Shown in pieces: positions 10,514-13,434 of a DNA stretch of 34,523 bases. The DNA is from Gammaproteobacteria bacterium. GTDB lineage: Bacteria > Pseudomonadota > Gammaproteobacteria > SZUA-229. The stretch is from contig DAOWFN010000090.1 in the NCBI GenBank assembly GCA_030637945.1, positions 1 to 34,523 on the forward strand, read 5' to 3'. A program made the translations under genes and the position numbers. Under the pieces are notes generated by a model. The model was given only the letters and a program-made list of their open reading frames with translations, was not told the DNA's origin and searched no databases. Position 1 is the first letter of the stretch; each line of letters opens with the position of its first letter.

Positions 10514-10804
10514 TTATTTCTTACCACCACCGCCGGCATTAAAACCAGCAGGTGCCTGACCGTAATCCCCTTCATCGAAAAAAAATCCAGCCATGTGTTT
10601 CTCGATAAGTTCAATATTTTTTGCATCGGCCGTATTCAAACCATTTTCATTGATAATGGTTGTCAATCTTTCCAGCCATTGTTTCCAGCCTTCTTTTGAC
10701 ACATTTTCGAAGATACGCTGACCGAGATCACCGGGATGTGGTGGTGCGTCCATCGCTTCTGCTTCAATTTTTAGCACTACACATTGAACTTTATTTTCCA
10801 TCAT
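10514..10804 (-). CDS. yggX: Fe(2+)-trafficking / oxidative-damage protection protein YggX
   Basis: VQCVVLKIEAEAMDAPPHPGDLGQRIFENVSKEGWKQWLERLTTIINENGLN aligns with E. coli YggX ([52 protein letters not shown]). AGAGG lies about 5-6 nt upstream of the ATGATG start. The start overlaps the radical SAM stop by 14 nt. Confidence 0.9.
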   Translation of the reverse strand: MMENKVQCVVLKIEAEAMDAPPHPGDLGQRIFENVSKEGWKQWLERLTTIINENGLNTADAKNIELIEKHMAGFFFDEGDYGQAPAGFNAGGGGKK

Positions 10805-11864
10805 TAACCTCTACACTATTCTCTTCATATTTTTTCAACAATACACCGTCGTCACCACAGCAACTCGCCGCACATTGTTTGATCTGGTTTAACTCTTCCG
10901 CGGTACTGTTTAAGTAAACCTCGATCGGCTGATTTTCCGTCGCACAGTCACAACCTTTGTCATTATACACGTAAACGTTGTTTAACCCCGCACGTTTCGC
11001 CTGTATTTCCGCATCGAACAGCATGTGTTCTGGTGTTGCAGGGATATGACTGAGTTTATAGGCCGGGAAAAAGCGTGTCACGTGCCAAGGGCTATCCGTT
11101 CCCAGGTTATCGCGTATCCAACAAGCGATTTTATAATGCTCTTCTGGGCTGTCATTTTTTCCGGGGATGATATTAGTCCGTGTTTCAACATGTATGCCGA
11201 GCTCTTGCGCTTTTTTGATAGAAGCTAACACCTGTTCAACCCTGGCTGGTCTGCAAATATCACTATAGAAATCATCCCGCATACTCTTGATGTCAGAACA
11301 TAGCACATCGATATTGCCAGCAATGAGCTCTAAGGCTTCATCCGTAACAAAACTGTTAGAGACGTAAACAGTATACAAGCCCGCCTTGTGCGCCAACTCA
11401 CACGCATCAAGCACATATTCCAGCCATACTGCAGGTTCTGAATAGGTAAAAGCGATGCCTTGAACACCTGCATTTAATGCCGCATCGATAAGTTTTTGCG
11501 GCGAGATCCAGGCTTCCTTTGATTGCCCCCTGGCCAGTTCATCCAGGGTTTCAGTGCCCCATGAGATCTCAAGGTTATGGCAACCATCACAACGGAAGCT
11601 GCAACCGTAACTGCCGACGGACATAACTTTCGTACCAGGACGATAATGTTTTACCGGCTTGGCCTCGATCTCATCGATATCGATCGCTGAAATAATCCCG
11701 TAAGACAAATTATACAATGTGCCATTACGATTAACGTGCGCCTGACAGAAGCCACGTTGCCCATGGCCGATCTTGCAACGCCATAGACATAAATTACAAC
11801 GTGTCGTGCCATTATCAAGCTTTTCCTGCAACCGCGTTTCGATAAGTTGATACTGATCTGACAT
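10791..11864 (-). CDS. radical SAM enzyme, AmmeMemoRadiSam-system type (PflA-like activase fold)
   Basis: The radical SAM motif is C88-x3-C92-x2-C95 (GCSFRCDGCHN). It is preceded by the family-typical N-terminal segment RCNLCLWRCKIGHGQRGFCQAHVNRNGTLYNLSYG...IEAKPVKHYRPGTKVMSVGSYGC. There is an extra C-terminal Cys cluster (C305, C307, C331, C335, C336). Confidence 0.88.
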   Translation of the reverse strand: MSDQYQLIETRLQEKLDNGTTRCNLCLWRCKIGHGQRGFCQAHVNRNGTLYNLSYGIISAIDIDEIEAKPVKHYRPGTKVMSVGSYGCSFRCDGCHNLEISWGTETLDELARGQSKEAWISPQKLIDAALNAGVQGIAFTYSEPAVWLEYVLDACELAHKAGLYTVYVSNSFVTDEALELIAGNIDVLCSDIKSMRDDFYSDICRPARVEQVLASIKKAQELGIHVETRTNIIPGKNDSPEEHYKIACWIRDNLGTDSPWHVTRFFPAYKLSHIPATPEHMLFDAEIQAKRAGLNNVYVYNDKGCDCATENQPIEVYLNSTAEELNQIKQCAASCCGDDGVLLKKYEENSVEVNDGK

Positions 11865-11891
11865 ACTAAGAGAACCTGTGAATAAATTAGT

Positions 11892-12746
11892 TTAGAGTTT
11901 AGCAGTGAAAGTAGCTGTTAAAACACCTTCATTACAGGGTATATTAAGCACGTCCCCCTTCACTTCAGCTTCTTGCAGATGACCATTGTTATCGTAACCT
12001 AAAGCTTTGTCGAGTAAATAACTGTGCACGCCCATCTGACAGCGATAAGGGTAACCAAAAGCTTGCGTCGCTCTCATAAAATTGAATATGTGCTGTGCTG
12101 ACCACGATAGATCAACAACAAAATCATCTGCGACCGGATAAGGATAATAACTAGACAGCTCAGGAAGCTGTATCTCACGGGTGAGTTTGCTCTCAGACAG
12201 TTCAGATAACATTTCCATCATCAATTCAGTACCGGCTTCAGCCAGCGTAGCGTTAATCTCTAAAAAACTGGCACCATCATCTAAATGAACAACTCTCTGC
12301 TTTACGATGTCACCCGCGTCAAAGTCATCCGTCACATGATGCCAGGTAACGCCTTTTACGCTATAGTGTTTCATCTGCCAGAATATTGGTTCAGGACCAC
12401 GATATTGCGGCAATAATGAAGGATGTAGATTAAAACAACCCTCTCTCGCCATAGCGACCACTTCTTCTGGTAAACGTCTACCATAACAAGACATCAGAAT
12501 TACATCGACCGGCACTTCTTTACACTGCTCAATAATCAACTCTGTCATTTGCGATAAATCAATCAGTGGAATATTTTGTTGACCAGCCGCCAGTGCCAAC
12601 GAATCATTTTCTATAGCAATAATTTTATCTTTTAAAACTACCGGATTAAAAACACCCACTGCTGTCACTAGATGTTCTGACGACAAGAGATTTTTAAATG
12701 GGGTTAACGATAACGCGCCTGAAGAACCGATATATAAAATATTCAT
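11892..12746 (-). CDS. formyltransferase family protein (methionyl-tRNA formyltransferase-like, N and C domains)
   Basis: The 284-aa protein carries CFNLHPSLLPQYRGPEPIFWQM (catalytic Asn and His) and DDFDAGDIVKQ (catalytic Asp loop). A ~90-aa C-terminal domain follows, as in Fmt. Confidence 0.85.
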   Translation of the reverse strand: MNILYIGSSGALSLTPFKNLLSSEHLVTAVGVFNPVVLKDKIIAIENDSLALAAGQQNIPLIDLSQMTELIIEQCKEVPVDVILMSCYGRRLPEEVVAMAREGCFNLHPSLLPQYRGPEPIFWQMKHYSVKGVTWHHVTDDFDAGDIVKQRVVHLDDGASFLEINATLAEAGTELMMEMLSELSESKLTREIQLPELSSYYPYPVADDFVVDLSWSAQHIFNFMRATQAFGYPYRCQMGVHSYLLDKALGYDNNGHLQEAEVKGDVLNIPCNEGVLTATFTAKL

Positions 12747-12790
12747 CAGGCGTACTTAATTGTTTGTCATTTCGAGCAACGGGAGAAATA

Positions 12791-13129
12791 TTAAAGCGTT
12801 ATAACCTGATCAGGCATGTTCCCGGATAAAGCACCATATAAGTTTGGAAAACATCCGATGGTCGCACCATCGACTAATTTGTCTTCAATTTCACGTTCAT
12901 AGGCACACTGATCACATGCCATTAATAGCATGCCTTTATCGGCAGCGACTTTTGCCAGGCGTTCACCGATAGGATTGCCTTGCTGTAGAACATAAGCATT
13001 ATCTTCAAAGAAGAACATGCCAACCACCTCGACACCATGAGCATCATCCTCAAGTTGAGGCAGAATCATCTTTCCGAGTTTGTAAGAAACCGAGTGTCCT
13101 TGTGTAGAAAAAATATACGCGACTTTCAT
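12791..13129 (-). CDS. DsrE/YchN/TusD-fold sulfur-relay-like protein (single subunit)
   Basis: The 112-aa protein has the topology and motifs of the family: MKVAYIFS...EVVGMFFFEDNAY...LLMACDQCAYER...VDGATIG...DQVITL. These parallel YchN (KLCKTCTDGRG...IDGVEIG...DKVLTF). AAGG lies 8 nt upstream of the ATG. Confidence 0.8.
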   Translation of the reverse strand: MKVAYIFSTQGHSVSYKLGKMILPQLEDDAHGVEVVGMFFFEDNAYVLQQGNPIGERLAKVAADKGMLLMACDQCAYEREIEDKLVDGATIGCFPNLYGALSGNMPDQVITL

Positions 13130-13152
13130 TGTGATTACCTTTTATATTGATT

Positions 13153-13434
13153 TTATTTAATTAATTGAAACCTGTTATTTATCTTTTGGCGCAGCTGAAA
13201 TAGCAGCGCAGCATTGTTGGTCATGATGTATTCGGTATCCCTATCCACATCAAACTGCATAGCAACAATATGACGTACACCCAGTGCAGACCCGATAGCA
13301 GATATCATACAAATACATAACACGAGGATAAGAATGTTTTTATCAAGCATGATTCGCCGCCCGGCATCTGGCTCATCCGGTAATATTCGAGATAAATCTG
13401 TATGGTGAATATGACTTATTTTATTCAGCGACAT
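13153..13434 (-). CDS. hypothetical small single-pass membrane protein (uncertain gene)
   Basis: The 93-codon ORF has one hydrophobic helix (ILILVLCICMISAIGSALGV). No SD precedes the ATG at 13434, and an internal ATG (MLDKN...) is possible. Several rare codons (ATA, AGG, CGA) are present. It lies 23 nt upstream of the DsrE-like gene. Confidence 0.35.
   Translation of the reverse strand: MSLNKISHIHHTDLSRILPDEPDAGRRIMLDKNILILVLCICMISAIGSALGVRHIVAMQFDVDRDTEYIMTNNAALLFQLRQKINNRFQLIK

Follow-up and report, generated by a model that had tools for sequence, protein, structure and literature searches.

What could bring a YggX protein, a radical S-adenosylmethionine (SAM) enzyme, a formyltransferase and a DsrE-like protein together in one tightly packed run of genes? 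The question is raised by a stretch of gammaproteobacterial DNA of 34,523 nucleotides (nt), referred to here at its full length as the window, in which a preliminary description had seen a compact four-gene operon with no recognised pathway. Comparison with about 120 related loci (designated by L-numbers from our scans; counts depend on the anchor gene and on contig size) shows that YggX is the hub of a conserved neighbourhood. In Proteobacteria, the constant core of this neighbourhood consists of YggX, an ErpA-like iron-sulfur (Fe-S) carrier and an ATP-grasp enzyme, and the other genes are added to it as optional layers.

A two-arm locus with a constant core

On the minus strand of the window, the open reading frames (ORFs) from 13434 to 10514 form a run of five tightly packed genes, with gaps of 23, 44 and 27 nt and then a 14-nt overlap. 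In the direction of transcription these are a small ORF, 93 aa long with a single hydrophobic segment, taken from the ORF list (13153..13434); a SaoD/DsrE-family protein of 112 aa (12791..13129; NF040913, motif LMACDQCAYER); a formyltransferase-like (Fmt-like) protein of the Fmt/ArnA class, 284 aa (11892..12746; Formyl_trans_N, with NLHPSLLPQYRG and DAGDIV); a radical SAM enzyme of 357 aa (10791..11864; Radical_SAM, CSFRCDGC); and YggX, 96 aa (10514..10804; PF04362, NF003817), whose gene overlaps that of the radical SAM enzyme by 14 nt. The four packed genes, their spacings, their motifs and a possible fifth ORF upstream had all been described before, and the ORF list bears them out. The idea of a self-contained four-gene operon does not hold, since the most constant partners of YggX lie outside it (7748..9560). 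They are encoded on the plus strand, convergent with the operon: an ErpA/IscA-like A-type Fe-S carrier (7748..8131; TIGR00049) and, directly downstream of it, an ATP-grasp enzyme of the L-amino-acid-ligase (LAL) type, 416 aa (8310..9560; ATPgrasp_N, ATP-grasp_4 and LAL_C2). As read from the sequence, the locus thus has two arms, a long one on the minus strand and a convergent one on the plus strand (ErpA-like, then ATP-grasp).

How constant is this arrangement? Species-representative genomes were scanned with an alignment of the Fmt-like family as query, which yielded 80 loci (a scan with patterns derived from the single Fmt-like protein found none), and these were classed by tblastn with the window proteins and by ORF clustering. 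Of the 28 informative loci of the subfamily, 23 had a YggX gene no more than 6 kb from the Fmt-like gene, versus 0 of 51 lower-scoring loci. The latter can be regarded as canonical fmt loci because they lack YggX and because def is next door in 17 of them; def was found in no YggX-linked locus. The best-scoring loci came from gammaproteobacterial metagenome-assembled genomes (MAGs) and from many Chloroflexi, including Nitrolancea hollandica. At least 11 more loci, with three distinct chromosomal contexts among them, have the order Fmt-like, radical SAM, YggX, so that the adjacency noted in the window is indeed conserved. In close gammaproteobacterial relatives (L001-L004, L011), this series is convergent with the ErpA-like and ATP-grasp genes, in that order. 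The same five genes occur in other surroundings in L082, the complete genome of the sulfur-oxidising endosymbiont of Gigantopelta aegis, and in L083. Other loci carry partial versions: L085-87 have the module in an unrelated flanking context and without the Fmt-like gene, L005 is without the radical SAM gene, L097, which shares the PreP context of the window, has DsrE-like, radical SAM and YggX genes without the Fmt-like gene, and the P0144 contig has radical SAM and YggX genes only. L112 and L117 instead have the radical SAM gene on the strand of the ATP-grasp gene, which it closely follows. On the long arm, the genes for YggX and the radical SAM enzyme are coupled: the YggX gene is immediately downstream in 17 of the 20 loci with a radical SAM gene of the window type, and the 14-nt overlap of the window has its counterpart in relatives as an overlap of 1-11 nt or a gap of 9-21 nt.

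A second scan, of metagenomes, was anchored on the ATP-grasp gene. Twelve proteobacterial-type loci had flanks of 1.5 kb or more on each side; all 12 had the ErpA-like gene upstream of the ATP-grasp gene and all 12 had YggX. The window-type radical SAM gene was present in 6 of the 12, the Fmt-like gene in 3 and the DsrE-like gene in 1. When 1,053 ORFs drawn from 118 loci were clustered all against all, no further recurrent partner emerged beyond the ATP-grasp enzyme, YggX, the Fmt-like protein, the ErpA-like carrier, two radical SAM families and the DsrE-like protein; lineage-specific PreP and thiopurine methyltransferase were the only other recurrent families. On the basis of these counts and of this clustering, the locus is nested: around a core of ErpA-like, ATP-grasp and YggX genes in Proteobacteria are laid, in turn, the radical SAM gene (in roughly every second locus), the Fmt-like gene (again in roughly half of these), the DsrE-like gene (in a minority) and the small membrane ORF. 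The window is the fullest form of this architecture. The gene set is real, kept across phyla and rearranged with its membership intact, which makes chance synteny an unlikely explanation.

The ATP-grasp enzyme, the Fe-S carrier and YggX

The product of 8310..9560 is predicted to be an ATP-grasp enzyme of the L-amino-acid-ligase type. Its scores for ATPgrasp_N (38.7 bits), ATP-grasp_4 (112.6) and LAL_C2 (47.6) all exceed the cut-offs, and its best match in the PDB is the L-amino acid ligase BL00235 (3VOT, 3e-33), with BacD at 2e-8. Compared with its Chloroflexi orthologues it is 37-45% identical, and 84 alignment columns are invariant.

The carrier encoded upstream of it scores 82.8 with TIGR00049 (cut-off 58.8) and 63.4 with the Pfam model Fe-S_biosyn. 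It falls short of the ErpA equivalog (NF010147; 74.2 against a cut-off of 117) and ends in an unusual tail rich in glycine and cysteine (SCGGCGGAGGGGCG / SSGGSCGGCGGAGGGGCG). Canonical A-type carriers end in C-G-C (C-G-C-G-x-S-F). The tail encoded in the window reads S-C-G-G-C-G-G-A-G-G-G-G-C-G, not C-G-C, and its C-x2-C...C pattern is kept in L001, L002, L003, L011 and L097.

YggX itself looks ordinary (PF04362, 95.2 against a cut-off of 27; NF003817, 98.6 against 74), including its N-terminal cysteine, Cys8, which aligns with Cys7 of the E. coli protein. E. coli sequences also served for comparison with Fmt and Def, and for Fmt the def-linked genes recovered by the scan provided a second set. 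We also considered the YggX tail as a substrate of the ATP-grasp enzyme and set the idea aside: the glycine-rich C-terminus, ending in KK, resembles that of ordinary YggX proteins and varies between loci.

A separate subfamily of formyltransferases

Is the Fmt-like gene simply the housekeeping fmt of this bacterium? Its 284-aa product matches Formyl_trans_N at 78.7 bits and reaches 109 bits with the fmt equivalog TIGR00460, for which the cut-off is 201.5; indeed, it stays far below the equivalog cut-offs of fmt, ArnA and PurN alike. A sequence search of the PDB placed ArnA at 1e-16 and Fmt chains at 1e-15 to 1e-12, no better than ArnA, and sugar N-formyltransferases and the F-domain of LgrA are at the same sequence distance as ArnA and Fmt. 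The AlphaFold model (predicted local distance difference test, pLDDT, 81) gave by Foldseek 7e-17 for ArnA and 2e-16 for Fmt over about 300 columns that cover both domains. Asn106, His108, Asp143 and HPSLLP are invariant in 23 family members of 284-291 aa. The protein of the window is 100% identical to one from a MAG, in line with an uncultured gammaproteobacterium as the source. The C-terminal domain sets the family apart: it has 90 aa and is acidic (family median net charge -5, isoelectric point 4.8), versus 115-129 aa, a median charge of +3 and an isoelectric point of 9.5 in 11 canonical, def-linked Fmts from the scanned genomes. The subfamily is also small, with 172 clusters (50% identity) at E<=1e-30 among 1.84 billion representatives that include 23,895 formyltransferases overall. 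Because of the invariant triad, the score shortfall, the short acidic C-terminal domain and the few clusters, we regard the protein as a formyltransferase, predicted to be catalytically competent, of a small separate subfamily and not as the housekeeping fmt product, and binding of tRNA appears unlikely.

Within the operon, the Fmt-like gene diverges faster than its partners (37-67% identity, versus 76-90% for the radical SAM enzyme and 71-92% for YggX in L001-L004, L082 and L083), and no other member is lost as often in close relatives (L085-87, L097).

Two unrelated radical SAM families at one position

The radical SAM enzyme of the window (Radical_SAM, 72.7 bits) is a relative of the PflA-type activases. 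It had been assigned to the AmmeMemoRadiSam type, and this assignment stands only at the threshold of the corresponding hidden Markov model. TIGR04337 scores 220.0, which is exactly its cut-off of 220, and aligns residues 11-307 of the 357 with model positions 2-291 of 349; the last 58 or so model positions find no counterpart, and the final 50 or so residues of the enzyme form a different, cysteine-rich tail. Neither AMMECR1 nor Memo was found in the window or in four Pfam-annotated orthologue neighbourhoods. More than 120 clusters are 76-90% identical, and relatives carry the name AmmeMemoRadiSam in NCBI records. The invariant cysteines comprise four at the N-terminus (C22, C25, C29 and C39), a CxxxCxxC motif (C87, C91 and C94) and, outside the TIGR04337 match, five in the tail (GCDC ... 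CAASCCG; C304, C306, C330, C334 and C335).

In Chloroflexi and other lineages, one of them of high GC content, the position is taken by another radical SAM enzyme, accompanied by the same ATP-grasp and Fmt-like families. The typical order in Chloroflexi is a reverse-strand Fmt-like gene, then YggX and the radical SAM gene on the forward strand, with YggX immediately upstream and the ATP-grasp gene close by. Radical SAM genes of both families are directly coupled to YggX. This second enzyme, which is not homologous to that of the window, scores 700.9 bits with NF040546, the "CUAEP/CCAEP-tail radical SAM (seleno)protein" model, and 322.7 with the next best, the ArsL model. An in-frame TGA codon is found within ...W-F/Y-C-TGA-A/S-E-P-T... 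in 15 of 17 copies (L010:1299-2693, minus strand; L014, L019, L020, L024, L028, L035, L062, L141, L144, L155, L156, L158, L161 and L169); the remaining two read CCAEP (L111, L173). Because the TGA is in frame and is followed by A/S-E-P-T...Q, these copies are probably selenoproteins, shortened by about 12-23 codons through mechanical ORF calling where the extension is readable. A vicinal Cys-Cys or Cys-selenocysteine (Sec) pair in the C-terminal tail is the sole feature common to the two families.

A high-GC contig (L156:6121-9849) carries a third version of the neighbourhood, without YggX. An NfuA-like gene is divergent from the ATP-grasp gene, which is followed by a Sec-containing CUAEP-tail radical SAM gene and by a convergent gene for a SaoD/DsrE-like protein 65% identical to that of the window; sufB is 3 kb away. 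As this contig pairs the SaoD-like protein with the CUAEP-tail enzyme, the SaoD-like protein associates with both types of radical SAM enzyme. The structure and function of the CUAEP-tail family were called poorly understood in a 2022 preprint (10.1101/2022.07.06.499078). In ArsL, a C-terminal RCCLKC tail binds the As(III) substrate, and the enzyme transfers the aminocarboxypropyl group of SAM (10.1101/2024.02.01.577332).

An optional SaoD/DsrE-like protein

The 112-aa protein belongs to the SaoD/DsrE family (NF040913, 180.4 bits against a cut-off of 152). It is just below the gathering cut-off of Pfam DsrE (PF02635; 22.3 against 22.7) and below that of SaoD proper (NF040732; 157.8 against 169), and there is no sao locus. 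Its AlphaFold model (pLDDT 85) resembles YchN (1jx7, 4e-7, template modelling (TM) score 0.70), DsrE (2hy5_A, 3e-6) and TusD (2d1p_A, 7e-6, TM score 0.74) in Foldseek. With this protein, the profile searches recovered essentially the four families that had been named in the preliminary description (DsrE-like, formyltransferase, radical SAM and YggX). Cys72, Cys75 and Cys93, a CxxC motif plus a further cysteine, are invariant, and some members have CDQCC. Cys72 is an invariant candidate for the persulfide position and might correspond to Cys78 of DsrE/TusD. The family counts 5,952 matches, of which the best 120 clusters are 83-95% identical and nearly all exactly 112 aa long; these include records named Beggiatoa, Acidithiobacillales and Ectothiorhodospiraceae and, at 84% identity, a record labelled Anaerolineae.

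The DsrE-like gene stands immediately upstream of the Fmt-like gene in the window, L001, L002, L004, L006 and L083, and immediately upstream of the radical SAM gene in L097. In L083 the DsrE-like protein is 91% identical to that of the window, the radical SAM enzyme 79%, the ATP-grasp enzyme 53% and the Fmt-like protein only 38%. The protein is an optional member of the cluster. Neither the hetero-oligomer partners DsrF/H and TusB/C nor the acceptors DsrC/TusE were found in the window or in the clustered related loci. The role of a persulfide carrier in the pathway, which had been suggested for it, is weak because it belongs to the SaoD/DsrE branch and is usually a stand-alone gene elsewhere.

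What might the locus do?

The common theme that we infer is iron/Fe-S handling joined to two amine-modifying enzymes, because the locus brings together YggX, an A-type or NfuA-like carrier and a radical SAM client and, in one case, is close to suf. Our preferred reading, to which we give a probability of roughly 0.4, is an iron/Fe-S-linked module that serves a Cys- or Sec-tailed radical SAM enzyme and has a branch that ligates and N-formylates a small molecule. YggX, by its handling of Fe(II), and the A-type carrier would provide the radical SAM enzyme with its clusters or shield them. The vicinal Cys-Cys tail of this enzyme (Cys-Sec in the other family) might hold a thiophilic substrate or a cluster, as the tail of ArsL holds As(III), and the SaoD/DsrE-like protein, with its CxxC and additional cysteine, might hand sulfur or a soft metal to it. 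The ATP-grasp enzyme would make an amide bond to an amino acid, and the Fmt-like enzyme would then cap the free amine with 10-formyl-tetrahydrofolate. The target would be a small molecule or peptide, not a tRNA. A precedent for ligation followed by formylation is offered by PurD and PurN, where an ATP-grasp ligation gives glycinamide ribonucleotide, which is then formylated; the locus likewise pairs an ATP-grasp enzyme with a formyltransferase.

Several points weigh against this proposal. The order of ligation and formylation, the role of the cysteine tail and the small-molecule substrate are analogies, and the two radical SAM families are equivalent by position only, since they are unrelated. 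The radical SAM, Fmt-like and DsrE-like genes are each dispensable in close relatives, and their absence in places therefore argues against one obligatory linear pathway. DsrE-like orthologues at 83-85% identity are mostly solitary in unrelated contexts, and the more distant homologues of the ATP-grasp gene are without all of the partners in 6 of 15 loci. We infer co-transcription of the minus-strand genes from their spacing. Finally, YggX has, to our knowledge, been without a settled biochemical function for two decades. A bolder version, which we consider improbable, is that two unrelated radical SAM families with Cys-Cys or Cys-Sec tails were recruited independently to one partner set (YggX, the LAL-type ATP-grasp enzyme, the Fmt-like protein, an Fe-S carrier and the SaoD/DsrE-like protein). 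They would then serve a new pathway to a compound with a C-S, C-Se or C-metal(loid) bond, or to a metallocluster, with YggX as dedicated iron donor.

Other explanations can be set against the iron/Fe-S-linked module. The radical SAM enzyme might make a non-proteinogenic amino acid for a natural product or antimetabolite, for instance by adding a 3-amino-3-carboxypropyl group to a metalloid or chalcogen, in the manner of ArsL; the ligase would couple it, as in bacilysin, dapdiamide or rhizocticin, the Fmt-like enzyme would N-formylate it, and YggX and the ErpA-like carrier would do no more than service the radical SAM enzyme. The CUAEP-tail enzyme is closest to ArsL, whose chemistry is known, L-amino acid ligases (3VOT and BacD) are the nearest matches of the ATP-grasp enzyme, and a set of efflux genes of the resistance-nodulation-division (RND) and ATP-binding cassette (ABC) types is nearby in the window. 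Yet half of the loci have the core without any radical SAM gene, and the window enzyme is PflA-like, not ArsL-like. The housekeeping synteny (lpxA, PreP) and the 71-95% conservation of the proteins across many MAGs are unlike the patchy occurrence of biosynthetic clusters, and ORF clustering revealed no dedicated exporter or resistance gene conserved with the locus. This explanation is therefore unlikely. The constant adjacency of the ATP-grasp gene and YggX would suit instead the synthesis of a low-molecular-weight thiol or iron ligand that buffers labile iron together with YggX. Here the ATP-grasp enzyme would ligate cysteine or another amino acid to an acceptor and the Fmt-like enzyme would cap the amine, as MshC and MshD do for mycothiol. 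Glutathione synthetase is itself an ATP-grasp enzyme, which counts in favour of such a role. However, the Fmt-like gene accompanies only 3 of the 12 proteobacterial core loci, nothing points to a thiol substrate, and the closest solved relative of the ligase makes ordinary dipeptides. We find this quite doubtful, even though a review of Fe-S maturation covers low-molecular-weight thiols and lists among its references a study of the labile iron pool in yggX/gshA mutants (PMC8593673).

The preliminary description had leaned towards a sulfur- and one-carbon-dependent modification, of which the tRNA version would have the Fmt-like protein bind the tRNA acceptor, the DsrE-like protein relay a persulfide and the radical SAM enzyme modify a base. 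Radical SAM enzymes do modify tRNA, and the two-domain Fmt fold and the DsrE/TusD fold are both confirmed. Nevertheless, the C-terminal domain of the Fmt-like protein is short and acidic, as opposed to the basic 115-129 aa of def-linked Fmts, and ArnA matches it as well as Fmt does. No tRNA or tRNA-modification gene is present in the window. Of all members, the DsrE-like and Fmt-like genes are kept least often, and the constant enzyme is of the amino-acid-ligase type. All this disfavours the tRNA reading, which we hold to be very improbable. There may also be no common pathway at all, each gene acting alone under a shared iron or oxidative stress regulon or as inherited synteny. The modular presence and absence of members would be expected then, as would the occurrence of the DsrE-like gene alone elsewhere, and enterobacterial YggX works without these partners. 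The same families are nevertheless adjacent in Gammaproteobacteria and in Chloroflexi, in at least three unrelated flanking contexts, with overlapping stop and start codons and with the order reshuffled while membership is kept, and we judge independent action of the genes to be unlikely.

Relation to known systems

Literature searches on YggX with ATP-grasp, radical SAM, formyltransferase, ErpA or DsrE retrieved no description of this cluster or neighbourhood, in agreement with the earlier statement that no recognised pathway accounts for it; nor did they retrieve a function for the SaoD/DsrE branch outside SAO (selenocysteine-assisted organometallic) loci or for the Fmt-like subfamily. Because all of the families are already known, what is new is their combination, not the kind of element. 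A close parallel is Fe-S maturation, whose accessory factors include A-type carriers, the folate-binding YgfZ/Iba57 and low-molecular-weight thiols, YgfZ being needed for the radical SAM enzyme MiaB (PMC8593673). The locus likewise has a folate-dependent protein beside its A-type carrier and YggX, with the radical SAM enzyme as the likely client. It differs in that its folate enzyme is of the Fmt/ArnA class with an intact triad and not of COG0354 (GcvT-like), in that the ATP-grasp ligase and the SaoD/DsrE-like protein have no counterpart there, and in the glycine-rich C-x2-C...C tail of its carrier in place of C-G-C.

Members of the SaoD branch outside SAO loci are described as having an invariant CxxC(C) and a third cysteine, with metal-import genes as neighbours (Haft & Gwadz, 10.1101/2022.07.06.499078). 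The 112-aa protein belongs to this branch and has the cysteines described, and a Cys-Sec/selenoprotein link recurs at related loci through the CUAEP-tail enzyme, although the window has no other Sao gene and the partners differ from the metal-import neighbours. The vicinal Cys (or Cys-Sec) tail shared by ArsL, with its RCCLKC, and by the CUAEP-tail enzymes is present in the window radical SAM enzyme too. The latter is, however, PflA-/AmmeMemoRadiSam-like and has no ArsM or arsenic-resistance context, which separates it from the arsinothricin pathway of ArsL; unlike the AmmeMemoRadiSam system, it has YggX, the ATP-grasp enzyme and the ErpA-like carrier as partners. Similarly, the Fmt-like protein shares the two-domain fold and the Asn-His-Asp triad with the group of Fmt, ArnA and PurN, but stays below the equivalog cut-offs, has no def in the window, and its C-terminal domain is acidic and shortened. 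"Methionyl-tRNA formyltransferase", "AmmeMemoRadiSam system" and "pyruvate formate lyase activating enzyme" are thus likely to be misleading annotations here.

Why does this neighbourhood matter? It gives YggX, the CUAEP-tail radical SAM enzymes, the SaoD/DsrE branch and the Fmt-like subfamily concrete partners in an LAL-type ligase and an Fe-S carrier, and its conservation spans marine Gammaproteobacteria of the sulfur-oxidiser type and Chloroflexi. If the link is functional, it would represent a new accessory route of iron/Fe-S handling, or a new organo-chalcogen or organo-metal chemistry.

Boundaries, small ORFs and surrounding genes

Consensus scans give some hints about transcription. A terminator-like hairpin (13514..13541, minus strand) lies between the gene of a PreP-like peptidase and the operon, and is overlapped by a promoter-like site (13521..13494, minus strand); together they are likely to mark the upstream boundary of the transcription unit. 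Another terminator-like hairpin (10165..10149, minus strand) lies within the AT-rich non-coding gap of 415 nt that follows YggX (10099-10513). These matches are hints at the level of a consensus, as the number of promoters in the scan was not above that in shuffled sequence. By blastn, the intergenic regions 10099-10513, 9561-9702, 13435-13565 and 7556-7747 showed no nucleotide conservation against the fetched loci, and the gap 10099-10513 had no match in Rfam.

Two ORFs of the locus are without a match in Pfam, NCBIfam or the PDB. The 93-aa ORF, which is possibly the first gene of the operon and lineage-specific, has tblastn matches at the corresponding position in just two loci, L002 and L006, where about 60 aa align at 40-49% identity. 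The other, 131 aa long and of no known family, lies on the minus strand between the YggX and ATP-grasp genes (9703..10098). A homologue 69% identical is found in L082 (831-1226), 6.7 kb from the module and with insertion sequence elements between, and none in the other loci, so that its membership of the cluster is uncertain.

The other window ORFs of at least 90 aa were scanned against Pfam and NCBIfam. No match to def, mutY, AMMECR1, Memo, TusBCE or DsrC was obtained among them, which confirms within the window the reported absence of the usual partners of these families. Before the cluster come genes for an SRPBCC-like protein, a PccH-like cytochrome, an MsbA-like ABC exporter and an RND pump pair. 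Beyond it are a PreP-like M16C peptidase, a thiopurine methyltransferase and the series lpxA-fabZ-lpxD-skp-bamA-rseP-dxr-cdsA-uppS-frr-pyrH-tsf-rpsB, then map and glnD. The window has no tRNA genes, and its only Rfam match is a t44 RNA (RF00127, 72.9 bits; 31466-31574, minus strand) upstream of rpsB; no RNA element is tied to the cluster. The rpsB ORF has 334 aa, of which the S2 domain covers residues 9-224 only, and its product thus carries a C-terminal extension of about 110 aa. Finally, the thiopurine S-methyltransferase gene (16597-17277, minus strand) adjoins that of the PreP-like peptidase and is syntenic in six related loci. It is of the tpm type that is linked to selenium and tellurium methylation, and its proximity to families with a selenium or metalloid flavour may be a coincidence.

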